From Myxococcota bacterium (GTDB taxonomy: Bacteria > Myxococcota_A > UBA796 > GCA-2862545), in the NCBI GenBank assembly GCA_039208735.1, contig JBCCQY010000165.1:1-21458 (forward strand): a stretch of DNA of 21,458 bases, given 5' to 3'. A model generated the notes under the pieces. That model made no database searches and had not been told where the DNA came from. It was given only the letters and a program-made list of their open reading frames with translations. Positions 2,679 through 19,857 of this stretch are shown piece by piece. Position 1 is the first letter of the stretch, and the number at the start of each line of letters is the position of its first letter. Both the position numbers and the translations under genes were made by a program.

Positions 2679-3113
2679 ATGTTGAAAGCCATTTTCATTA
2701 GCGTCCCTCTCTTTCTTCTCGTCACGGGTTGCAGCGGCGACGAAGACACCCCGTTGGAGACCGCAGAGACCGCAGAGACCGCGGATCCTGGCACCACTAT
2801 GCCGGCCCCCACCGGTGATAACGAATGGGCCGCGCCATGTGGCGATGGGCTGCCAGACTGTCCGGCGGACCAGACCTGCTACATGCCGCCGCTTCCTGAC
2901 GGCAGCACGACCCAGGGGTACTGTTCGCCCAGTTGTTCCGAAGACGCAGAGTGCACCGACGGTTTCTTTGGACCGGGCACTGCCACTTGCTTCGTTCCTC
3001 CATTTTGCCTGATCTCATGCGACCAGGCCTTCGGCGAGGACTTGTGCCCAGAAGGGTTGACCTGCCTTCCCACCGGGGGGCCCACCAACGCGTGCGGCAT
3101 CTTCGAGGAGTGA
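2679..3113 (+). CDS. Cys-rich lipoprotein of unknown function
   Basis: Lipobox LVTG-C, low-complexity ETAETAETA linker, then a domain with 12 Cys (e.g. GYCSPSCSEDAEC, FCLISC, CPEGLTC). Confidence 0.8.
   Translation: MLKAIFISVPLFLLVTGCSGDEDTPLETAETAETADPGTTMPAPTGDNEWAAPCGDGLPDCPADQTCYMPPLPDGSTTQGYCSPSCSEDAECTDGFFGPGTATCFVPPFCLISCDQAFGEDLCPEGLTCLPTGGPTNACGIFEE
2757..2783 (+). repeat. 9-bp tandem repeat (GAGACCGCA x3) encoding ETA-ETA-ETA
   Basis: gagaccgca gagaccgca gagaccgcg read directly. Confidence 0.85.
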
Positions 3114-3120
3114 TCGTGGG

Positions 3121-3447
3121 TCAAGGTGCTTGCAGCGACTCCCCATAGTGGGCAATGTCGGCAATCTCTTGGTCCGCCAGACGGTCCGCGTAGCGAGGCA
3201 TTCCGGTTCGGCTGTTGAGCATGGCATCGACAAAGACCGGAAACTCTCGATCCCAGATGTTGCTGCCAATGCCTCCAGAGCCATCGGCGGCATGACAAGC
3301 GGCGCAATTGTCGAGATAGAGCGACTGTCCGTTGGCGAGGTCGGGTGACAGGGACAAAATCTTCGTCTCTCGCGTCGCGGTGTCTGCAGAGGTAACGGCG
3401 GTTTCCTCGTCTCCTGAACAGGAGAGGAGCAAACCGAACCAAACCAT
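3121..3447 (-). CDS. Class I monoheme cytochrome c, predicted lipoprotein
   Basis: GQSLYLDNCAACH heme-binding motif, distal Met in GMPRY, C-terminal helix 'LADQEIADIAHY'. Lipobox LLLS-C. Start placed at ATG 3447 after a GGAGG RBS. Confidence 0.88.
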   Translation of the reverse strand: MVWFGLLLSCSGDEETAVTSADTATRETKILSLSPDLANGQSLYLDNCAACHAADGSGGIGSNIWDREFPVFVDAMLNSRTGMPRYADRLADQEIADIAHYGESLQAP

Positions 3448-3523
3448 TGAGACCACGGGACCTCCAAGAGCCCACATTGTGTGCGCTCGGTTCTTCTCGA
3501 TATGCAGGGATCGTCACATCATC

Positions 3524-3542
3524 GAAAATGAATTTCATATTC
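3524..3542. promoter_or_regulatory. Fur-box-like palindrome 1
   Basis: GAAAATGA-ATT-TCATATTC; 13/19 to the classical GATAATGATAATCATTATC and 17/19 to the box at 21385. Lies 12 bp upstream of the MxcI-like ATG. Confidence 0.75.
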
Positions 3543-3554
3543 ATCTGGTGGAGG

Positions 3555-4739
3555 ATGCACGTGCGACACTGGACCATACTTGCTGCCGCCCTAGGCGTTG
3601 CTTGTACCGGCGAGACCGAAGAAGATCCGGTTGTTCCAGAGGCCGAGGAGGCTTGGCTAATCGGCGTTCGGGTGCGGACTCCGGATTCCCGCAGCGTGTT
3701 TGCGGTGGTGGTCGAAGACCCGGCGGAGGCCCAAACCATCGATCTGTCCGGTGCGATCGAGTTCAGTGGCGCCTCTCGCTTGTTTGCCGTTGATGGGTAC
3801 ATCTACGCGATGGATAGCGAATCGGGTGTGGTCAATCGCCTCGAGGTCGGGTCAGACAGCACGGTGCGCACCTTGGACACGTTTTCGATGCAGGGCGAAG
3901 GCGTGACCTCGTTCCGGAGCACGTTCGCGTTCGTTTCTCCCGAACGGGCCTACTACATCGATGTTGTGAACGATCAGATCATCGTCTGGAATCCCACAAC
4001 GATGGCGCTAATCGAGTCCGTCCCCTTCGAGGCCCCCGATCAAGGCGGGCTTGGGCTCGCAGGCGGAACCCCGGTCGTCACAGGCGATCAGGTGATCATG
4101 CCGGTGTCGTGGTCCAACCTCACGACTCTCGACTTTTACCCGGCGGTGGCTGCGATGTTGGTTTCGACGACCGATCCCATCTCTGTGACCTTCATCGAGG
4201 ACGCCCGCTGCGTGAGTTCTGGCGGTGGCTTCGTCGATGACGCCGGCGACTATTACCTGCTCGGGGACAGCTCGGGCGGAGCCGTCGAGCTGCTGGAGCC
4301 GGACACCGCCCCTCCATCCTGCTTGCTACGGATTCCAAGCGGCGAAACTAGCTTCGACCCTGACTTCTCGATCACGATGTCCGAGCTGACCGGGCGGCCT
4401 TATGTCAACAGCATCGCCGGCATCGGCGACGGAACTGCCGTGGTGCAGGTCTTTGATCCAAGCGTCTCACTCGAGGGTCTGGATCCATTGGAGTTTGTTG
4501 CGCTTTCGGCCTGGCAGTGGGCCCGCATTGACACTGTCGCGGAGACCGCCGAACTCGTAGAACGCGAACCGGCTCGGGTGGGGTTCGGTCCGTTCGCCGA
4601 CGATCAGGCCTTCTACCTACCTGAATTCCAGAACGAGACCGGCCAGTCGGAGTTGGTCATCTGGCCGCATGGTGACGCTGAGCCTTCGGTCGGACCGAAC
4701 GTGACAGGCGAGATTCAGGTCGTCAGCCGCATCCGTTGA
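3555..4739 (+). CDS. MxcI-like lipoprotein (beta-propeller-like, associated with iron uptake in myxobacteria)
   Basis: Lipobox LGVA-C; RBS GGAGG then ATG 3555. Motifs 'AIEFSG', 'FVSPERAYY...QIIVWNPTTM', 'EDARC' and 'CLLRIPSGETSFDPDF' are recalled from MxcI-family proteins. Fur-like box directly upstream. Confidence 0.7.
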   Translation: MHVRHWTILAAALGVACTGETEEDPVVPEAEEAWLIGVRVRTPDSRSVFAVVVEDPAEAQTIDLSGAIEFSGASRLFAVDGYIYAMDSESGVVNRLEVGSDSTVRTLDTFSMQGEGVTSFRSTFAFVSPERAYYIDVVNDQIIVWNPTTMALIESVPFEAPDQGGLGLAGGTPVVTGDQVIMPVSWSNLTTLDFYPAVAAMLVSTTDPISVTFIEDARCVSSGGGFVDDAGDYYLLGDSSGGAVELLEPDTAPPSCLLRIPSGETSFDPDFSITMSELTGRPYVNSIAGIGDGTAVVQVFDPSVSLEGLDPLEFVALSAWQWARIDTVAETAELVEREPARVGFGPFADDQAFYLPEFQNETGQSELVIWPHGDAEPSVGPNVTGEIQVVSRIR

Positions 4740-4848
4740 TCGTGTCCACCGCCCGGTGACGGCGACGGCTCGCCCGTCTCTGTAGGATCGCGGAGGGGTG
4801 AGCCCGTTCGGTGGGGTTCCGAGAGACCCAACACCTAAACGGAGACTC

Positions 4849-5265
4849 ATGATGATGATCGGATGGATGGTTGCCACGGCTGTGGCAGCGCCCCCGCAAG
4901 CGCGGGACTACAGCAACCTCGCGAACCACTTGCAAAGCTGTCCCATTGGCTGGCAAGACCTGTTCGCCGACATCCAAAAGTCCGGCCTCGCGGGCATGGA
5001 CAGTGCGGGCCTGGAGTACGCGGTGGGCTGGGTGTACCCCGCCTGGCCCGATCCGGTGTCGCTGACGCTGTATGACGATGCGACGGACACCGTGCTCGGT
5101 GGAGCGGTGGCCGACGACCAAGGCCAAGTGACGCCCTGGGGCGATGTCATCGACATGGAGCCCGTTCGACTCGCGCGGAACTGCGCCGTGCCCACGCGAT
5201 CGATCGACCTGGTTCGGGTGTACACCGCGGCCAACCCCAGCGGCCTGCTTTTGCTGGTTCGTTGA
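4849..5265 (+). CDS. Hypothetical secreted protein
   Basis: GGAG RBS before ATG 4849; short signal-peptide-like MMMIGWMVATAVAAPP; two Cys; no recognised family. Confidence 0.65.
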   Translation: MMMIGWMVATAVAAPPQARDYSNLANHLQSCPIGWQDLFADIQKSGLAGMDSAGLEYAVGWVYPAWPDPVSLTLYDDATDTVLGGAVADDQGQVTPWGDVIDMEPVRLARNCAVPTRSIDLVRVYTAANPSGLLLLVR

Positions 5266-5298
5266 GGTGCAGCCTGAGGCCCGCATCCCGAGGGAGTG

Positions 5299-8200
5299 TC
5301 ATGGCGCACAAACCATCGAGATGTCGTCGATGTGCGTCTGGTCCGAGATGAGCGAGCCCATGTCCGAGCGGAATCGGAACCGGAATTCGACATCGAAGGC
5401 GCTCGGATCCGCGATCGTTCCTGATCGAAGTACGAATCCGAAGTCGTTGCTGCCCCCAAACACGGTGTCCGCATTGACCCAGGCCCCGGCGGCCGCGTCG
5501 TACCATTCAAAGAACAAATCATCGCCGCTCTCGGGCAGCTGTGGGCCTCGACGGGCCCGGTAGCTCCACTCCAGGGCGCTGCATCCGCTGGTGTCGAAGG
5601 CGATGGACTCGGCCCAGGTGAGTCCCGCCATGGACAGGCTGTAGCTGCCGGAGTGGGCCTGCCGGTCCGTGCGCCATCCTTCACCCCGCACGGCCTCCCA
5701 AATCGGAGCCGGAACGACGGGCTCGAATCCGACGAACACGTCGGGACCGTCCACTCCGGTGCAATCCTGATCCACGCCGTCTCCAACGACGTCCAGCGCG
5801 CCAGGGTAGCGAAGTGCATCGGCGTCGTCGCAGTCCGCGAGATCGCAGAGTTCTCCTGTACCGTCGCCGTCCTCGTCGGTGCAGCTGTGGCAGCGGAACT
5901 GTTGGAAGGCGTCGCTGTCATCACAGTCGAGCAGCTCGACGACACCGTCGAGGTCGTTGTCGTTGCCCGCGCAGCCCACCCGGAACCCGTCGATGCGGGT
6001 TGGATCGTAAAACGATGTGAGCAGGTCTGAGCCCACGAACCGAAGCCGGAAATCGGAGCGGAAGGCGGCCGGGTCCGTGAGGAGGCCGAAGCGTGGAGTC
6101 ACCTCCTCACCCTGGCCAAACTGGTCGATGAGGTTCCACGAGGCTCCATCCCACCATTCGACGTCCACGACGGGCTGGTCTTCCACAAGCCAGACGTCTT
6201 CGGCCAAGAAACCCCAGGCAACCGCGCTGCATGCTCGGGTATCGAGGTCGTTGGTCTCGAGACGCGGCAAGCTCGCGAGGTCGAGCCAGGCATCCCCGGC
6301 AAAGACGTAGGGTCGGTTCGGGTACAATTCTGGCACCGTATCGGAGTAGTAGACCGCGCCCGAAACCGAGTTGAGATCCCATACGATCGGGTCGAGGCGC
6401 CGCAGCTCGAAGTCGTCGTGAAAGCCTGGCCCATCGGCGCCCGAGCAGTCCTGGTCGATCCCGTCTATGGGATCGGCGGCCCCTGGATGCACGAGGGAAT
6501 CGGTGTCGTCGCAGTCGGCCGCGAAGTCACAGCGAACGCCAAAACCGTCACCGTCGTCATCGATGCATCGACCGCACGAAGACCATTGCATGGGATCCGT
6601 GTCGTTACAGTCAAGGGCGCTCGGCACACCGTCACCATCGCCATCTCCGTCCGAGCAGCCCACCGAGAATTGGTCGATGACGAACAATGGCTCGTCGCTC
6701 GCCGTGTGTCGAAGCTGGACGTGGAGGTTTGCGACGTTTGCGCCGGCCGGAAACAGGCCCTCAAATCGTCGCCACGGAGCTGACGCGTTCGCCCCTTCGA
6801 CGCGGACGATTTCGGTAAGTCCCGCACCGGTGCCCAAGGCCAACACCACGTCCTCTCCAACGTTTGGAAAGGTGCGCTCCAGCTCCCCGAGCCGAATGTC
6901 GAACCGATAGGCAACCTCGTTGCAGGCGCTTGCGTCGAGCAGGCGGCTCTCGAGCACCCCAGAGGGCAGAGCATCGTCGAGCGCCCCGAGTTTCAACCCG
7001 AAGTGGCCCTCGGTGCGGTACGACGGGGTGCGGGAAAGGTCGTCGGCGATGACGACCCACCGTTGGGGGCGTAAGGGCTCCTCGAAATTGTCGGTCAACA
7101 GGGCTTGGCCATCTGCACCGTCACAGTCTTGGTCGATGCCGTCGCCGAACGTGTCGAGGGCCGCCCCCGGGAAGATCGAGGAATCTCCATCATTGCAGTC
7201 CTCGGGCAAGTCACAATCCCGACCAAACCCGTCTCCATCGACATCGAGGCAGGTCTCGCACGTTGTCACGACGAAGGGGCGCCCATCATCACAGTCGAGT
7301 TCGGCGCGAATCCCGTCCTGGTCGGCATCGTTTTCGACACAAGCGAAACCAAAGTCGTGGATATCGAACGCGACCTGGCTCCCCCCTTCCACGTCGAGCC
7401 GCATGGCGAAGTCCGCTCGCAGTGCCGCCGGGTCGTCGATGGTGCCCACGAGGCGTCGGCGTTCGAAGGCTTCCCGCTCGCCAGGCCACATGAAGGTGGG
7501 CACAAACCCAAACCCATTGAAGTACGACAGCGTTAATTCGGCATCGCGCTCGAGTTCCGCCTCGGCAGTGGCCGTGAGATGCCAGTTGATCGCTGTACAA
7601 CTGCGAACGTCGATGCCCGTGGTCTCGAGTTGCGCGGGGTCGTGGAGCCGGACGTACCGGTCGCCGGGGTCACCCAGAAGCGAGGCGTCACCCGCCCAGC
7701 TTCGCCATTGTAGCGGGTCCGGCTCGTCGAGTTCGAGGTCCTCGAAGAAGCCCGGGCCGTCAAACCCATCGCAGTCGGTGTCGATCCCGTCGCCGATGGG
7801 GTCCGGGGCGCCGAAGTGGATGGTGGCGTCGGTCTCATCGCAGTCTCGGCCGAGGTTGCAATCCGTGCCATAGCCGTCGCCATCGCTGTCGCTGCAGCGC
7901 CCACAGGCCGTCCAAAGTGTGCTGTCGGTGGGGTCACAGTCGAGGTCGTCGCCTACCCCGTCTCCGTCGCCATCAGGCGCGCCACAGCCCACGAAGAAAT
8001 CGTCGAAGCGAAATCCTGAAACTGTAGGATCAGGGTAGGGGTTGCGCAGGCGCAGGCGAAAGTCGGTAGCGAAAACCCCGGGTCCGCGGATCGATCCTTC
8101 GAGGGTTTCGCCAAGGTTCTCATCGACGTCGTCGATCACCGAGCGCCAGTCGGTGCCGTCCCAGTAGTCGAGAAGGTACTGAAAGACCGCATTGGCCGCG

Positions 8201-11016
8201 AACCCCGGGTCGACCCGCATGGAATAGGCCACCGTGTCGCAGGCCGTGGTGTCGATCGGGCGGGTCACGACTTGGCCGCCCCCGTAGAGCTGGAGCACCT
8301 TGTTGCCATAGACGGGGAAGTTGTCGTTCCCCAGATCAACGCGGCCCGAGAGGCTCTGCCAAACGGACGGAATCGGCAGGCCGGACTGAAAGTCATCGAA
8401 CAGGCCCACCCCATCTCGACCCGAACAATCCGTGTCGATTCCGTCGCCAAGCAGGTCGGGGGCATGTGGATGGACGGTCGCGTCCGCATCGTTGCAATCG
8501 GGTCCCAGATCGCAGTCATCGCCGTAGCCGTCTTGGTCGACGTCCGTGCAGTCCTGACAGGCGTCGAACGACCACAGAGCGGGAGAGTTGTCGTCGCAGT
8601 CGAAGTTGTCCTGCCACAAATCCCCGTCCGCATCGGGGTCGCCACAGCCAACGAAGACATTGTCAACGTGAAACGCCTGTTGTGCAGTTGCCGGAGCCCT
8701 CGCCGTGCCCTGGATGCGCACCCGGAGGTCGGAGCGGAAGGCTTCGGGATTGGCGAGGTTGCCCGTTAGCAGCAGCGAGCCAAACTCGGGGGCGTCGGGC
8801 TGGAGGAAGGGAATCCACTCCTCACCGTTGAAAAAGGCGACCTCGAGCATGTCTTCGGCTTCAGCGGTGTCGCGGAAGCGGAAGGTGTACTCAATGGTCG
8901 GGCAGTTTGTGGTGTCGATGGGCTTCAGTGTCATCGTGGACGAAGGGTCGATCTCGATGCTGTAGTCGTCGCGCAATGGCGCTCGGTACTCGAACCGCCA
9001 GGGTTCGGCGGGCCGGTCCCAGATGACGTTGGAAAACGCCTGGTTCTCGAACCGATCCCGCCACCCTGGTCCATCGGTGCTCGAGCAGTCGCTGTCGATA
9101 CCGTCGCCATAAGGGTCGGGGGCTCCTGGGAAGAATGCTGCGTTGCTGTCGTTGCAGTCTTCTCCGCGGTTGCATCCCACCCCAAAGCCGTCACCATCGA
9201 GGTCTTCGCAGGTCAGGCAGTCCGACCAGCGCTCGGCTTCGAGCGGATCACAGTCCACGGCATCGATGACGCGGTCTCCGTCGGAGTCTTCGAGCGATGG
9301 GTCGCAAACGATGTAGAGTTCGTCGATGTAGACATCATCGAAGCTTCCCGAACCGGTGATTTCGAGCTGGAGCGCAAACGCGGAATTCCGAGCTGCGGCA
9401 TCGCGCAGTAGGCTTTGCTCGAGGCTGAAGAAGCGCGCCACAGTCGACGGTTCCGATAGGCCTGCAATGCGGCGAAACTCGATCCAGGCGGCGCCATCCC
9501 AATACCGCAGGATCAGATCGTCGCTCGTGTCGAGGGTCACCTTTTCGAGCTGGAAGAAGATGCCAATCTCGTGGCAAGCGCTCGCGTCCATAGACACGGT
9601 CTCGGCCATCCCGCCCGGACGAAAGAATAGCGACCATTCTCCTGCCAAATGCTCGTCCGTCGACATTCGAGCACTGGCATTGCTGTTGGCCCACCTTGTG
9701 GCGTCGAAGGTGCCGCTCTCCATGCCGTCGTAGAACAAGGTGAGGCCGAGGGCTGAAGCATCGTCGTACGGATCGAGGGGGTCGAGGCCACTTCGAAGTT
9801 CGGTCCCGTCGGAGAGCCCTCCGCCATCGGTGTCGGTCAGGCTCGGATCGGTACCATGAACCGTGACTTCGATTCCATCGGCAAGCGAATCGCCATCGGT
9901 ATCGGGATTCCCTGCGTCGGTGCCCAAGAGCAGTTCCGCATCGTCCAGAAGTCCATCTGCATCGGTGTCGTCGAGCAGCGGGTCGGTGCCATGGAGCGTG
10001 ACCTCGGCCCCATCGTCCAGGTTGTCTCCATCGGTGTCGGACTCCAACGGATCGGTGAGCCAGATCAAGACCTCGTCGCCATCGTCGAGGCCGTCCTGAT
10101 CCGTGTCCGCCAGGGCCGGATCCGTATTGGTTTGCAATGCCTCAACCGGGTCGGTGAGGCCGTCCGCATCCGAGTCGACACGCACCGGGTCGCTGCCCCA
10201 AACGTTTACCTCTTCGCCGTCGCTAAGGGTGTCTCCGTCTGTGTCGGATTGGGTCGGATCCGAGCCAAAGACGAACATCTCGGCGAAATCGTCGAGCCCG
10301 TCGCCATCCGTATCGAACAACATCAGATCGTCGAGGGGATCGAGCGGATCGAGGCCCTCCATGACTTCGGTGCCGTCGCCGATGCCGCCCATATCGGTGT
10401 CATCGAGGTCAGGTCGGGTCTGGTGGACGTTGACCTCGGCCCCGTCGAGCAAGCCATCGTTGTCGGTGTCGGGATCAAGCGGGTCGGCTTGCACCTTGGC
10501 TTCTTCGCCATCATCGAGCCCGTCGTCGTCGGTATCTGCGTCGTTGGGATCGGTCATCCCGTCGAGTTCGACCTGATTGGTCAGGCCGTCGCCGTCATCG
10601 TCGAGCAACTGGGCATCGTCACTGGGGTCGGTGGGGTCTCGGCCCGCTTCGACCTCAAACCCATCGTCAGCGCGTCCCCCGTCCGTGTCGGAAGCGAGCG
10701 GATTGGTTCCGTGAACGTTGACTTCGTCGCCGTCACGAAGCCCATCGCCGTCTGTGTCAGGGTTGAGCGGATCGGTGCCTCCCTCCACCTCCGGGCCGTC
10801 GTCGAGGCCGTCGTCGTCGGTGTCGGGACGGTTCGGATCGGTGCCCAGGCGCTTCTCATCCGCATCCCGCAGTCCATCCGCATCGGTGTCGACGTCGACC
10901 ATCGGAGGGCTAGGGGGGCCGGCATCCTGAGATTCCGGTCCGCAGCCGACAAACAGTGGGAACACCAACCAGCGCACAACCCCTCCAGTGGCGCGAAGTA
11001 TACGCGGCCGCGCCAT
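5299..11016 (-). CDS. Giant (1905 aa) surface/secreted repeat protein: bacterial TSP3-like Ca-binding repeats, then 7 jelly-roll (reelin-subrepeat/MAM-like) domains separated by 6 Cys-rich MopE-like 'putative metal-binding' linkers
   Basis: Lipobox-like LFVG-C; 16 DTDxDGLxDxxE...TDP units; 7 domains of pattern F-x-D-x-F...W...D-x3-C...FRLR...ID-x-F-x-VGC; 6 linkers DxDGDG...DC...CxxC-x-DxDGDG-x-G-xx-C...DCxD...PGA-x-D...DGIDxDC. Confidence 0.9.
9760..10890 (-). repeat. 16 intragenic Asp-rich Ca-binding repeats (about 22-23 aa each)
   Basis: Counted from the translation, from [12 protein letters not shown]... to [25 protein letters not shown]. Confidence 0.88.
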
Positions 11017-11040
11017 GTCGGGAATTCAACAATCGTGTTG

Positions 11041-11076
11041 GGCGGGCGGAACCCTCCTCAAGTGGGTTGTCCCGCC
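11041..11076 (-). terminator. Imperfect GC-rich hairpin between the protease and giant-protein genes
   Basis: GGCGGGCGGAACCC ... GGGTTGTCCCGCC immediately after the protease stop. No clear U-tract, so it may be an mRNA stabiliser or a weak terminator. Confidence 0.35.
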
Positions 11077-11080
11077 TCGA

Positions 11081-12496
11081 TCAGAACTGGATGTAGCCGT
11101 TGCAGTGCAGATTCTGTGAGAAGCTGCCCCCACAGCTGCCATTCTGCCAGACACCGGTATTGGTCGACTGATCTTCGGCCTGGCGGCGAACGTCGTCAAG
11201 TTCCACCCAGTCGACGTAGGCATCGCGATTGCCGTTGTCGTTGTCAAAGCGGATGCGCACGTCGGACCACGAGACGGAACCTGTGTAGTCGAAGCGCCGA
11301 GTTGCCCAAGAGGTGCTCAAGTTGCTCCACGTTGCGACGGTCGAGCCGTTGATCTGCAGACGGAGTCGTTCGCTGCCATCACGTCCGCGCACTCGGGCCT
11401 CGATCTTTGTCGTGGATGAACCAGGCGCTTCACACACGTCCACCGCCGAACTCCACCCGTAGGCAGGTCCCACGTCGGTTGCGCAAACCAGCCCTGAGGC
11501 GCATTCCCCAGGTTCACAATCCCCTTCCCCGGCAAGACATGGTCCGCAGTCCTTGCAGTAGTCCCAGTCGCCAGGTTGCCATGGGCAGCTCGACGTCGTG
11601 GCTTCGCACACGTCCACCGAATTGGCCCACCCGTAGTTCGCGCCAACATCGTTGACGCATTGCGTCCCCACAGCGCAGTCTGCGTTGGAGTCACAGTCCC
11701 CGAATCCATCGGGACACGGATCGCTCGGACTGCAGTAGCTCCAGCCTGGAAAGATGCTGCGCAACGTCGGGGAGTGCGACCACAACCGCTCGATGCGCAT
11801 CGCGCTGTTCCCCGAGTTGCTGCTGTTGTTGCATCCCGCGTTGGTGTGGACGCCGACGAGCCGCCCGTTGTCTCCAATGACGCCGGAGCCCGAGCTGCCA
11901 AAGGTCGTGTCGACGCCGTGTCGGAACCAATTGTTGTTGAACGAATTGAAGTCCACCACGGGTCCCGCATGGACCACCTTCGGGACTCGGGAAGGGTGTT
12001 GGATGAGCGCGACCGTGTCGCCGACCGAGTAATCTGAGTGGTGAATGGGGACGGTTCCAAAGACGGATCCCGCGTTGCCATCGAGGCGAACGATGGCGTA
12101 GTCCCAGTTCGTGTTGTCTTCCTGCTCGAGCACTGCGGTAACGGTGTAGTCGGTGGTCGGACGGGGGTTTCCATTCGGATCATTTTGGTAGTTGAAGCGA
12201 ATGGCGTCGCCGACTGAATATCCGCAATGCCCGGCAGACAGAAACAGGTCCGGCGCGATGAGCGTACCCGTACACCCTGGCACAACATGGTAGCCAACGG
12301 CTTGTTCATGGGTGTTCACGAAGTTGATCGAAACGCCCGCCGTACCGTCATACGATTCGACATCTTGAACATCCCAGGTCGGGCCGCACTGTGACAGTGC
12401 CGGGTCGTCCTCTAAGACCTCGATATACCGGTCTTCTTCAACCACACAGGCCGCCATCCAAACGGTGGCACTCAACGTCAGCAGCATTCGATTCAT
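11081..12496 (-). CDS. Trypsin-like (S1) serine protease lipoprotein with two Cys-rich repeats and a C-terminal CBM60-like module
   Basis: CTGTLI...LSAGHC (His), WDYAIVRL (Asp), DTTFGSSGSGV (Ser), IQHP. Lipobox MAA-C from ATG 12496. C-terminus 'RVRGRDGSERLRLQING...DNDNGNRDAYVDWV...RQAEDQSTNTGVWQNGSCGG...LHCNGYIQF' matches the CBM60 pattern. Confidence 0.9.
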   Translation of the reverse strand: MNRMLLTLSATVWMAACVVEEDRYIEVLEDDPALSQCGPTWDVQDVESYDGTAGVSINFVNTHEQAVGYHVVPGCTGTLIAPDLFLSAGHCGYSVGDAIRFNYQNDPNGNPRPTTDYTVTAVLEQEDNTNWDYAIVRLDGNAGSVFGTVPIHHSDYSVGDTVALIQHPSRVPKVVHAGPVVDFNSFNNNWFRHGVDTTFGSSGSGVIGDNGRLVGVHTNAGCNNSSNSGNSAMRIERLWSHSPTLRSIFPGWSYCSPSDPCPDGFGDCDSNADCAVGTQCVNDVGANYGWANSVDVCEATTSSCPWQPGDWDYCKDCGPCLAGEGDCEPGECASGLVCATDVGPAYGWSSAVDVCEAPGSSTTKIEARVRGRDGSERLRLQINGSTVATWSNLSTSWATRRFDYTGSVSWSDVRIRFDNDNGNRDAYVDWVELDDVRRQAEDQSTNTGVWQNGSCGGSFSQNLHCNGYIQF

Positions 12497-12758
12497 CGGA
12501 CAATTCCCCCTGCTTTGGGACGCACGCCGGATCGGACGACGCGAAGTTGCGCCTTCCGACGGGTTGATTCGGGCATGCACTCGTCACGCTAGGAAAAATC
12601 TGGCTTACCTGGCCTTACATGTGTGCGGAGCTTGTTGCTATGGGCGTCGTCGGGACGGCGGTGGAAGGATCGGGCAAGCGGTCAATGGGGGAATTGGTTT
12701 TGCACAACGAGGGGGAGGGGGGGCAAGGATGGGAAGCGAAGTCTGGTAGCCTGTCGCG

Positions 12759-15398
12759 GTGACTCAACCGCTTCCGATGTTTCGTCAGCCACTGGGGCCC
12801 TTCGCGGGCCGAGATCAAGAACTGCGAGTCTTGGGCGATGCACTGATCGATGAGGGGTCGCTCGTCGTCGTCACCGGCATGGGAGGGATCGGCAAGTCGC
12901 GCCTCGCCGCAGAGTGTGCGCTGCGCTGGGAGGGTTCGGTACTCACCTTGACTTTGGATGGAGCTACCGAAATCAATGATGCCGTTCGGTCATTTTCGTC
13001 GATTCTTCAACCGGACGCACCCTTCGAGGATCTGGCCAAGGTCGTCCAAGAGCTTCGCGTGCGTGGCCCCGACTTGCTGATCCTCGACGGGTTTGAAGCG
13101 ATGGCCCACCATGGGCCTGAAATTTTGGGTCAATTGCGAACGTCGGGGGTGAAAATGCTTGTCACGTCCCGCATTCCGATTGCGTTGGTTCGACAACGAC
13201 GGCTTGGCTTGACACCGTTGTCGCGAGATGACGCGCGGCAGGTCTTGCTCGGTCATGCCAGACGCCATGATCTGTCGTTCGATGCGAATTCTGATCCGAT
13301 GGGCATGAATCGCCTTCTCGAACACCTCGATGGGGTGCCTCTCGCGATTGAACTCGCCGCATGCCGGCTGCGAACCTTCACACCAAGCCAGCTTGCCAAG
13401 CGACTGGATGCGGGGATGCGGTGTCTTCGATCCGACGCGATGGTCGATCGGCATGCCAGCATTGTGGGCATCTTGGACTGGTCGATTCGCCAGCTCCCAC
13501 CATCGGTGCGCAACGCATCGCTCGTGCTCGCGGCGGTGGAGGGTCCACTGTCGCCCGAGGTCGCCGAAGCCCTTCTCGATGAGGTGAAGCAGGAGCGAGA
13601 CGGAACGGAAGGTCTTGAGGCGCTCGACTGCTTGCTCGAACGTGGCTTGCTGTATCGCTCAGATGAGCGACGGGACCAGCTCGCAATGTTGGGCATCGTT
13701 CGTCGAGCCCTGCTTGCCGGAGCATCTGTAGCCGAACGGACCCAAGCATTTCAGCACCATGCTGCCTTCTTTCTCAAGCGAAACGCGGGCATTGCTCAGC
13801 CGGACGCCTTGCTGGTCCACCTGCTTCGTGGAGGCGGGGCGGAGTCCCATCTCGCGGACCTGCCGCAGCTCGAGCGAATCGTCGAGAGAAGTGGGCTGCC
13901 CATGGCTACCCGTGTGACGGCTTCGTACGCGGTATTTAGCCTGCTGGTCCACCACCATCCGACGTGGCGGTACGATTCACTCGCCCAACTGCTTGCCGAG
14001 GCGGTGGAGGATGAGGAGCCTACGACCCGGGCGCGGGCGTGGCTGGTTTACGCGCACGCTGCCGTCATGAATCTGTTTCCTTCGCCCCCTATCCACGAAC
14101 TTGCGAGCGGCTATGAGGTCCTGTTGTCCCAGGGTGATGAGGAATCTGCGGCTCAACTGGGCTACTTCGTGGGCCGAAGTGGAGGCGCTCCGAAGGGCTT
14201 TGACATCGCCGCGGCCCGAACCCGCGCTGCCCGAGCGAAGGGGCCGGTCTCGCAACTCTGGATGCACTTCGATCGCAATCGGCACTTGTATCTGCTGTCG
14301 CGACCCCATGCGTTGGACCTAGTGGTGCGCTCGCAGCTCGACGCAAAGGCCTATCCGGTGTTGTGCGACCGATGGACGTTTCATCGTGCGGCGCTGTTGC
14401 TCGAACGAGGTCGATTTGTCGAGGTTCGACGACTGTTGCTTCGAGCGGACCGTCGTCGGATGCAACCCACCGATCGGATCATTCTCGAGTGCCTCTTGGC
14501 GCGCACTGCATTCGCAACGGACAGTGTAGACCTGGCCCGGGAGCGGCTTGCCATTGCTGAAGCAATCGCGACGGACAATGGCATCGGCGATCCGTTTGCC
14601 GGAGTCTTCGCCCGGACTCGGTGGCTTGTGGCGTTGTCTGAGGGTCGCGCTGTCGACGTGCTCGCGGAGAGCCAACAGTTGCCGCCTGGACCCCTGGTGG
14701 CCAGCAGTCAACAGCGGTGGATGGAAGGGCTCGCCTATTTGATGCAGCGGGACCCAGATACTGCCGAAGCCGTGGTTTCCGTGGCGTGGCGCAAGGGCCA
14801 ATGGCCGTCCGACCGTGCCCTTGAAGATGGAATTCGGGCGCTTGTTCATGCGTGGCGGGGAGAGGCTTTGGAGGCTCAACGGGCGATACGCGTCGCGCAG
14901 GGGCGTTCGATGTGTCGGCGGTCCTATCGGGTCCAGGCTGCGCTGCAGGCGATGGCCGAGGTGGCGAATCGATGGCTTTGCACACCCATTCACGGGTTGA
15001 CCGATTCCAACTGCGCGCCGTATTTGGCCGCTCGCGCGGTGCTTCCCCTGAAACACGTACGCCCCGATGCTTCGCCATCGGTATTGCGCGTGGACCCGGA
15101 GCTGCGTTGGTGTGAGGCTCCATCCGGAGTACGACTCGACCTTGCCCAGCGGCCCGTATTACGCCGACTCCTTGCTGAATTGGTGACCGCGCGTCTTGAA
15201 CAACCCGGGCGTGTCGTGCCCGCGGAGCAGTTGATCACCGCAGGCTGGCCTGGGGATCGTTCAAGCACCAAATCGCTACGAAATCGGCTTTGGGTTGCAC
15301 TTTCTCGTTTGCGGCGACAGGGGTGGGAAGGCGCGATTGAGCGGGTGAATTCCGGCTACCGGATTCGCGCCGACCTGCCGTTGCAGCAGGTGCCTTGA
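12759..15398 (+). CDS. STAND/NB-ARC-type ATPase transcriptional regulator with helical (TPR-like) middle and C-terminal OmpR/PhoB-type winged HTH
   Basis: FAGRDQEL, Walker A GMGGIGKS, Walker B LLILDGFE, LVTSR, LDGVPLAIELAA, RHASIVGILDWS; C-terminal 'PGRVVPAEQLITAGWPG...RNRLWVALSRLRR...GYRI'. Confidence 0.88.
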   Translation: MTQPLPMFRQPLGPFAGRDQELRVLGDALIDEGSLVVVTGMGGIGKSRLAAECALRWEGSVLTLTLDGATEINDAVRSFSSILQPDAPFEDLAKVVQELRVRGPDLLILDGFEAMAHHGPEILGQLRTSGVKMLVTSRIPIALVRQRRLGLTPLSRDDARQVLLGHARRHDLSFDANSDPMGMNRLLEHLDGVPLAIELAACRLRTFTPSQLAKRLDAGMRCLRSDAMVDRHASIVGILDWSIRQLPPSVRNASLVLAAVEGPLSPEVAEALLDEVKQERDGTEGLEALDCLLERGLLYRSDERRDQLAMLGIVRRALLAGASVAERTQAFQHHAAFFLKRNAGIAQPDALLVHLLRGGGAESHLADLPQLERIVERSGLPMATRVTASYAVFSLLVHHHPTWRYDSLAQLLAEAVEDEEPTTRARAWLVYAHAAVMNLFPSPPIHELASGYEVLLSQGDEESAAQLGYFVGRSGGAPKGFDIAAARTRAARAKGPVSQLWMHFDRNRHLYLLSRPHALDLVVRSQLDAKAYPVLCDRWTFHRAALLLERGRFVEVRRLLLRADRRRMQPTDRIILECLLARTAFATDSVDLARERLAIAEAIATDNGIGDPFAGVFARTRWLVALSEGRAVDVLAESQQLPPGPLVASSQQRWMEGLAYLMQRDPDTAEAVVSVAWRKGQWPSDRALEDGIRALVHAWRGEALEAQRAIRVAQGRSMCRRSYRVQAALQAMAEVANRWLCTPIHGLTDSNCAPYLAARAVLPLKHVRPDASPSVLRVDPELRWCEAPSGVRLDLAQRPVLRRLLAELVTARLEQPGRVVPAEQLITAGWPGDRSSTKSLRNRLWVALSRLRRQGWEGAIERVNSGYRIRADLPLQQVP

Positions 15399-19535: not shown

Positions 19536-19563
19536 TTGACATATTTCATCCATGAAATATAAA
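19536..19563 (+). promoter_or_regulatory. Sigma70-like promoter overlapped by a perfect palindromic operator
   Basis: TTGACA (19536-19541), 16-bp spacer, TATAAA (19558-19563); ATATTTCAT-CC-ATGAAATAT (19541-19560) is a perfect 9-2-9 inverted repeat. Confidence 0.7.
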
Positions 19564-19641
19564 AAATCGCCCCCTTATCGCATGGTTATTCCTTTTGAAT
19601 CGACCTGTAGAGTGGGCCTGCCTTTCCCCATCGGAGGATCG

Positions 19642-19857
19642 ATGTACCGAGCCATTCGCAACGCCATAAGCGCCTTGATCGTCACGGTGATCGTCCTGGT
19701 CGCGTTCCAAGCCGAGGTCGCAGCCGGGCCCTCGAGCGAGCCGATCGACCCCTGCAAGTTCGTGTTGTGCCCCGCACCCGTCTGCTTCCCGGGTGAAGTA
19801 CCTGTCGTCCCCAGGGGGCAGTGCTGCGCCATCTGTGTCCCCGAGAAGACGCTGTAG
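19642..19857 (+). CDS. Small secreted six-Cys miniprotein (71 aa), resembling the C-terminal half of a VWC domain
   Basis: GGAGG RBS plus ATG 19642; Sec signal peptide ending ...AEVAA; mature part CKFVLCPAPVCFPGEVPVVPRGQCCAIC = C-x4-C-x4-C-x12-CC-x2-C. Confidence 0.78.
   Translation: MYRAIRNAISALIVTVIVLVAFQAEVAAGPSSEPIDPCKFVLCPAPVCFPGEVPVVPRGQCCAICVPEKTL

Follow-up and report, generated by a model that had tools for sequence, protein, structure and literature searches.

Reelin subrepeats are 11-strand jelly-rolls (PMC4882317), and their Asp-box motif is defined in PMC4882317 and PMC2716378. Work on MopE* reports that Ca2+ protects it from proteolysis and that loss of its first 24 residues abolishes binding to a Cu(II) column, implicating the N-terminus in weak Cu(II) binding (PMC3423442). 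Myxococcus CglD is described in a preprint as a surface-exposed Ca2+-dependent lipoprotein adhesin (bioRxiv 10.1101/2023.10.19.562135). We analyzed contig JBCCQY010000165.1 of a Myxococcota bacterium, 21,458 nucleotides in full (hereafter, the window), in which one open reading frame (ORF) encodes a predicted surface lipoprotein with a reelin-like layout, namely, jelly-roll domains (D1 to D7) separated by six-cysteine linkers (L1 to L6; Table 1). The original prediction, made from the sequence alone, proposed a reelin-analogous or homologous rod-like adhesin. Here we show that this array protein is not a reelin: its domain is distantly homologous to the reelin subrepeat, whereas its layout is most likely convergent.

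The strict alternation of seven domains with six linkers is as originally described, with the array lying C-terminal to TSP3-type repeats. The 51 cysteines of the ORF comprise Cys25, two in each of the seven domains and six in each of the six linkers. The linkers measure 74-77 aa, close to the 75-80 aa first given, and are 45-59% identical to one another, with a cysteine spacing of 10-12/2/11/4-5/21-23; the domains, put at about 140 aa, actually span 140-154 aa and share 17-31% identity in pairs. At the start of D1, residue 428 has its first base at position 9735. Four columns are invariant across D1 to D7 (W, D, C and C). The motifs listed in the original prediction are present, with exceptions: (Y/W)WDGxxW is exact in only 3 of the 7 domains, D5 departs further, and the Asp replaced in D4 is 98% conserved in the family (Table 1). 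The predicted pair of conserved cysteines occurs in all seven domains; across the genus of the source genome, the two residues are 99% and 100% conserved and probably form a disulfide. An acidic N-terminal motif (D/E5, 90%) and a C-terminal Asp140 (98%) are kept in the family alignment, and by analogy with CBM and reelin sites, the latter on the convex side of the repeat, they are candidate ligands of a structural Ca2+. Among 79 aligned linker units, 13 Asp and 6 Cys are conserved at 90% or more. The only Pfam families above cut-off in the ORF are Cu-binding_MopE (PF11617; 90.1 bits, 6 stretches) and TSP3_bac; no catalytic family was found in this search. Searched singly, D1 to D7 match no Pfam family above cut-off, and a sub-cutoff match of single domains to DUF2510 was discarded as a short WDG..W similarity. 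The array is not a chance pattern, because a hidden Markov model (HMM) of the seven domains matches four further ORFs of the genome, with E-values down to 2e-30.

The jelly-roll fold originally assigned to the domains was recovered in an AlphaFold2 model of D7, which was built on an alignment of 117 domains from the genus and has 11 strands (predicted local distance difference test score, pLDDT, 93.7). When this model was compared with 48,161 representative chains using VIA-align, the four listed reelin entries ranked 1-4 (Z 16.0-17.6; root-mean-square deviation, rmsd, 2.3-2.5; 140-142 of 147 aa aligned), and the next chain scored Z 14.2. Among the top 999 chains of Foldseek, six reelin entries lead (PDB 2E26, 3A7Q, 5B4X, 6A48, 7LYU and 2DDU; Z 16.0-17.7, rmsd 2.2-2.5), followed by the MAM domain of meprin (Z 15.1-15.9); the Foldseek TMq is 0.71-0.79 for reelin and at most 0.66 for the other rows. 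MAM (meprin, enteropeptidase), cleaved adhesin and carbohydrate-binding module (CBM) families 16, 22 and 4 also have this galactose-binding-like fold (Z 13-15.9, with a maximum of 14.3 for CBM or cleaved adhesin) but are less similar at profile level. Thus, of the folds named in the original prediction, reelin subrepeats lead the solved structures. Array domains and reelin subrepeats (PF21471) have in common a D-x-F ... LD ... W ... R ... (I/V)DD signature and a conserved C-terminal Asp, but are only 13-17% identical in structural alignments. A two-domain model, D6-L6-D7, reached a predicted template modelling score (pTM) of 0.69; the linker, which is folded only within that model, had no match in either fold search of it.

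Sequence profiles agree with the structure, with reelin B significant and animal MAM not; the array domain is therefore a distant homologue of the reelin subrepeat. In global hhalign comparisons, the profile of the genus matches generic prokaryotic modules at E 1e-32, Bacteroidota-type reelin-like domains at 9e-25, sponge reelin-like domains at 1e-13, reelin B at 9e-11 and reelin A at 5e-6, as against 2e-8 for bacterial MAM and a non-significant 0.01-0.38 for animal MAM. The family's own profile had served to collect the generic and sponge sets and some of the Bacteroidota-type set, but not the MAM sets. All 117 domains are nearer to the reelin-side sets than to the MAM sets, and 95 of the 117 remain so when the reelin sets are animal-only. 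Against PDB sequences, the 117-domain profile recovers chains of reelin with E-values between 6e-9 (a multi-domain value) and 5e-3, a 24-domain profile finds reelin at E 0.063 only, and the 7-domain profile has no match. PF21471 is matched by 3 of the 117 domains at E <=0.05, and one same-genus relative just reaches its cut-off, with 27 bits. None of the 117 domains matches the MAM (PF00629, PF20773), cleaved adhesin or CBM4/16/22 families of Pfam at E <=0.05, and searches of 61 genomes with the cleaved-adhesin and MAM families found none in the genus. The ESM Atlas returned only leads below 0.9.

Tandem domains with six-cysteine spacers are common to the array and reelin, but a reelin-type repeat is not. 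Reelin alternates A and B subrepeats and has EGF only between A and B. In four animal reelins, spacers of about 37 aa with six cysteines alternate with spacers of about 6 aa with none, whereas the array has a linker at all six junctions; identity between domains at lags of 1, 2 and 3 is 32.0, 30.2 and 30.7%, respectively, so that there is no A/B two-domain period. A whole reelin repeat, in which A and B pack as a compact horseshoe, cannot be overlaid on the two-domain model (rmsd 9.5-10.5 A), although the pTM of this model is only 0.69. The cysteine spacing of the linker (10/2/11/5/22 over 75 aa) differs from that of reelin EGF modules (3/5/4/1/8 over about 35 aa), Pfam assigns MopE and not EGF to the linkers, and the linker HMM has no match in 27 animal reelin or reelin-like proteins. 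The full Asp-box, S/T-x-D/N-x-G-x-x-W, is present in 4 of 117 domains of the genus versus 158 of 202 reelin B and 83 of 102 reelin A subrepeats; a shorter [WYF][DN]GxxW occurs in 36 of the 117, and 7 of 146 sponge reelin-like domains have the full form. The two cysteines of the array domain are found together in none of 450 animal domains. At its N-terminus, the array protein has a lipoprotein signal and TSP3 repeats, and it lacks the N-terminal Reeler domain and the basic C-terminus of reelin.

The linker itself was correctly linked to MopE in the original prediction: the PF11617 motif equals its second half, and the array linker is an extended, 75-aa variant with six cysteines, the profile of which matches the MopE N-terminus (E 9e-5). 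Animal reelin and the family are not sister groups, so that the idea of a Ca-binding module in the place of EGF is no more than an analogy. The linker profile also matches, weakly (E 0.02-0.06; best 0.021), mammalian acyloxyacyl hydrolase (PDB 5w7a and 5w7d), in a stretch that we presume, as an unconfirmed lead only, to bind Ca2+; if so, the motif would have a structure already solved. Elsewhere, an ORF at G000:C20:65904-67466 consists almost entirely of MopE-type repeats, 11 in tandem.

Phylogenetic analysis separates the family from animal reelin. In a tree of 132 rows, the family and the generic prokaryotic modules are split from the Bacteroidota-type and animal domains (Shimodaira-Hasegawa-like approximate likelihood ratio test, 99). 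With 58 rows and a bacterial MAM root, the same two groupings receive support of 96/93 and 98/98, respectively. A clade uniting the family with animals was rejected by the approximately unbiased (AU) test, which was run on subsets of 48 (p=0.010) and 58 rows (p=0.011) without several long-branch rows. Given this rejection, and the far closer reelin domains of Bacteroidota-type proteins, the reelin-like layout most likely arose independently of animal reelin. Of the originally proposed 'reelin-analogous or homologous' relationship, the distant homology of the domain stands, and that of the whole layout does not, the family not being sister to animal reelin.

The closest sequence group, sister to the family in the tree, comprises reelin-like jelly-roll modules of bacterial and archaeal surface proteins, which match PF21471 weakly; these differ in occurring mostly as 1-6 copies on enzymes or Ig arrays, largely without the cysteine pair and without the six-cysteine linker. 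Eleven other bacterial proteins score 61-136 bits against the animal reelin HMM, most of them with type IX secretion system (T9SS) signals. This Bacteroidota-type T9SS cargo shares the domain clan and a tandem array with a spacer at each junction, but the spacer is different (about 87 aa, 2-3 Cys), as is the export route; an Asp-box is found in 25 of 39 domains, and these are much nearer to animal reelin than the array is. For tracing where reelin came from, this group is more promising than the window protein. Its members (P0050, or MBX3100897.1; P0064, P0075, P0079, P0113 and P0178-P0183) have 1-12 domains, often with the Asp-box; P0050 has 12 copies, with spacers that are mostly modules of about 87 aa. 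Sponge-type reelin-like proteins (P0029, P0043 and P0155-P0176, of which P0170 is from Dysidea avara) have 20-35 subrepeats without EGF. The three sponge-type proteins examined lack a six-cysteine spacer and have spacers of about 29, 5 and 10 aa with a three-domain period. The family member P0031 carries tandem Pfam EGF_3 modules (6 stretches) just before its first reelin-like domain, not interleaved.

A taxonomic survey of the domain-plus-linker unit, as the original prediction had suggested, shows the array to be concentrated in one probably myxobacterial genus, represented by five genomes. The source genome (9.4 Mb, 64% GC) has 24 array-type domains in 5 ORFs, and the other four have 18-38 domain matches each; the fetched regions of these five genomes hold 28 ORFs with the domain, 19 of which show the alternation with the linker. 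The domain was found in none of 36 other genomes of the family and order. Among 401 genomes of the phylum, with 9 candidates scored in each, 16 match, the 14 outside the genus with 1-2 weak matches each, and no linker was found in the 13 extra-genus phylum loci examined. Among the best 150 of 3,026 matches in a library clustered at 50%, 53 alternate, with 2-10 domains; the linker-bearing loci are labelled Myxococcales, Deltaproteobacteria and Polyangia, together with several doubtful submitter labels. The domain is also a single, terminal module on Kelch, Ig, cadherin and TSP3 scaffolds, and dozens of other ORFs in the source genome carry the MopE motif. Because each occurs without the other, domain and linker are both mobile modules. 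At locus L026 (G001:C38:27000-46999), four adjacent genes encode the same jelly-roll, in 2-7 copies, without the six-cysteine linker.

Two seven-domain relatives are 40-41% identical to the window protein over most of its length, and 5 of 7, 4 of 7 and 6 of 7 best domain matches between orthologues lie on the diagonal. Internal domain identity is 44-46% in other arrays versus 22% in the window protein. This partly kept order, together with the greater homogeneity of other arrays, fits an array of old age whose domains have differentiated, next to expansions of more recent date, in agreement with the age and divergence originally inferred.

The original prediction missed the N-terminal part of the protein, with its lipoprotein signal and about 15 TSP3-type repeats. 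The true start is likely the GTG at 10977, yielding a product of 1892 aa, because GGAGG lies directly upstream of this GTG and database copies start at residue 14. The signal is short and the lipobox call is a pattern match only; 35 of 50 alternating-array proteins with an M/V start fit the same loose pattern. Pfam TSP3_bac matches 13 stretches of the ORF (E 2e-16), and the TSP3 region contains 15 D[TS]Dx[DG] units. These DxDxDG repeats on a lipoprotein resemble CglD, but the array protein lacks a VWA domain, and the region gets only 65 of the 400 bits required for CglD and 35 of the 800 required for MtsD.

The reading that we favour, with modest confidence, is that of a lipid-anchored surface protein with likely Ca2+-binding linkers, acting as an extended multivalent adhesin, its layout independent of animal reelin. 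The lipobox-like Cys, the CglD-like TSP3 repeats and the lack of a catalytic Pfam family point to the cell surface; the conservation of Asp140, D/E5 and the linker Asp residues, the MopE match and the reported protection of MopE* by Ca2+ point to Ca2+. Export and lipidation at Cys25 would come first; Ca2+ loading and disulfide formation in the TSP3 repeats and MopE-type linkers would then space the jelly-rolls as beads on a semi-rigid stalk. Each jelly-roll may be fixed by one structural Ca2+, held by the N-terminal D-x-F-E and the C-terminal Asp, and by one family-specific disulfide. Alternate strand positions of the domains are highly variable in the alignment, which, with the partly kept domain order, suggests diversified binding faces. 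Such variable outer faces could recognise glycans or proteins outside the cell, be it on substrata, in matrix or on prey or host cells, and repetition would supply avidity; paralogues with 2-10 domains would give a genus-wide repertoire of probes.

Several observations weigh against this reading. The structural lead of reelin is real but modest, because meprin MAM is close behind (Z 15.9, about tied with reelin 2ddu at Z 16.0) and the best Foldseek E-value for D7 belongs to a MAM domain. None of the seven window domains matches PF21471, and they score only 0.3-12 bits against the animal reelin HMM; per single domain, CBM16 (23.4 bits, E 5e-4) does as well as reelin (21.4 bits). The comparison sets gathered with the family's own profile are biased towards it, and the trees have long branches and were built from about 150 columns. 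Inter-domain geometry comes from the model with pTM 0.69, so the stalk or rod shape stays inferred. Finally, a family-wide aromatic platform of the CBM type is not evident, as judged from the alignment alone.

MAM domains in animals bind partner proteins or their own copies on neighbouring cells. With MAM second in fold similarity, the jelly-rolls might likewise bind partners or copies of themselves on neighbour cells in homophilic contact, kin recognition or cell cohesion; the expansion of the family in one genus with varying domain number, and weak, below-cut-off matches of the TSP3 region to the cohesion protein MtsD and to CglD, fit such a role. We consider it unlikely, as the profile of every domain is nearer to reelin-side than to MAM sets (95 of 117 in the animal-only comparison) and no conserved partner gene was found next to the array gene in the 24 fetched loci. 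A passive coat or spacer, in which an acidic polymer stabilised by Ca2+ and disulfides shields the cell without a specific ligand, would account for the composition of the ORF (D+E 22.5% versus K+R 5.6%), for conserved positions that are mostly core and metal residues and for the lack of a catalytic domain; positional orthology of diverged domains better suits domain-specific roles, however, and the single, terminal use of the domain on other scaffolds also argues against a coat, which seems quite unlikely.

Capture of Cu(II) or other cations by the MopE-type linkers and TSP3 repeats, with jelly-rolls as mere spacers, would explain the match of the linker to the MopE N-terminus, the part without which MopE* no longer binds the Cu(II) column (PMC3423442). 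This is very unlikely: the MopE motif behaves as a generic module, being present in dozens of unrelated ORFs of the genome and in architectures without the domain, and no metal-transport gene was identified next door by Pfam, several neighbours having no family. True reelin ancestry of the whole architecture, through a shared ancestor with domain and six-cysteine spacer or by transfer from animals, draws on reelin topping the structural matches of one- and two-domain models, but is largely refuted, and highly improbable, given the AU rejection (p 0.010 and 0.011), the linker HMM without a match in 27 animal proteins, the differing cysteine spacing, the sponge proteins lacking a six-cysteine spacer and the two-domain rmsd of 9.5-10.5 A.

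Table 1. Features of the array gene in the window.
Feature	Position	Strand	Description
Whole ORF, 1905 aa from first ATG	5299..11016	-	Predicted surface lipoprotein
Signal	10942..10977	-	Short, hydrophobic, terminal lipobox-like Cys25; sequence pattern, lipidation predicted
TSP3 region	9754..10896	-	About 15 acidic TSP3_bac-type repeats, likely Ca2+-binding stalk; Pfam TSP3_bac, D[TS]Dx[DG] units
D1, aa 425-572	9301..9744	-	Reelin-subrepeat-like jelly-roll by family membership
L1	9070..9300	-	Six Cys, MopE-type
D2, aa 650-792	8641..9069	-	
L2	8410..8640	-	Six Cys
D3, aa 870-1012	7981..8409	-	
L3	7756..7980	-	Six Cys
D4, aa 1088-1227	7336..7755	-	Conserved Asp replaced by His
L4	7108..7335	-	Six Cys
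D5, aa 1304-1455	6652..7107	-	Without WDG..W and PxAF motifs
L5	6430..6651	-	Six Cys
D6, aa 1530-1683	5968..6429	-	Beta-sandwich in model
L6	5746..5967	-	Six Cys; model pLDDT 73-95, nearly without regular secondary structure
D7, aa 1758-1904	5305..5745	-	11-strand jelly-roll, nearest solved fold reelin subrepeat

Across 4500-12800, the window is matched exactly by two overlapping contigs from X1, a run that may be the source, and runs X2 and X3 contain pieces of this region that differ by a few percent. Opposite-strand ORFs overlapping the array gene were taken as shadows. No sigma-70 promoter was found for the gene, and terminators were not in excess. Gene neighbours are not conserved among the 24 fetched homologue loci, save for one weak TetR match; there is therefore no operon context, and the upstream protease gene is not linked. 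The latter (11081-12580, minus strand), which lies 64 nt upstream of the first ATG of the array on the same strand and was not seen beside homologues, encodes a protein predicted to be a secreted trypsin-like protease, its middle rich in Cys and its C-terminus formed by a CBM60. An 879-aa product (12759-15398, plus strand) with an N-terminal P-loop and sub-cutoff AAA/NACHT/nSTAND matches resembles a STAND-type regulator. Four small predicted exported proteins (2679-3113, plus; 3121-3477, minus; 3447-4739, plus; 19552-19857, plus) comprise two that are rich in Cys and match no Pfam family, a cytochrome c and one with weak resemblance to DUF4374.

PF21471 already matches many prokaryotic proteins, and no description of bacterial reelin-like arrays was found in the literature searched, most subscription papers lying outside its scope. 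What is new is a subfamily, presumably disulfide-bearing, that strictly alternates with a MopE-type linker; in the window it has no Pfam annotation, and it can now be curated. The reelin subrepeat can thus be placed in a module family that is widespread among prokaryotes, and arrays of the type 'jelly-roll plus small spacer' have come about several times, each with its own spacer: EGF in bilaterian reelin, short and Cys-poor in sponges, about 87 aa in Bacteroidota-type proteins and MopE-type with six cysteines in the window array. With such compact single domains, the ligands of reelin-type jelly-rolls outside animals can be tested for directly. Speculatively, and with rather low probability, this uncultured, probably myxobacterial genus may have independently invented a reelin analogue, with Ca2+-rigid arrays and six-cysteine spacers serving cell-cell signalling or recognition, and, taken with the domains close to animal reelin in Bacteroidota cargo, a prokaryotic pool may be the source of the reelin subrepeat. 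If true, the latter would give simple bacterial models for the ancestral ligand of the reelin subrepeat.

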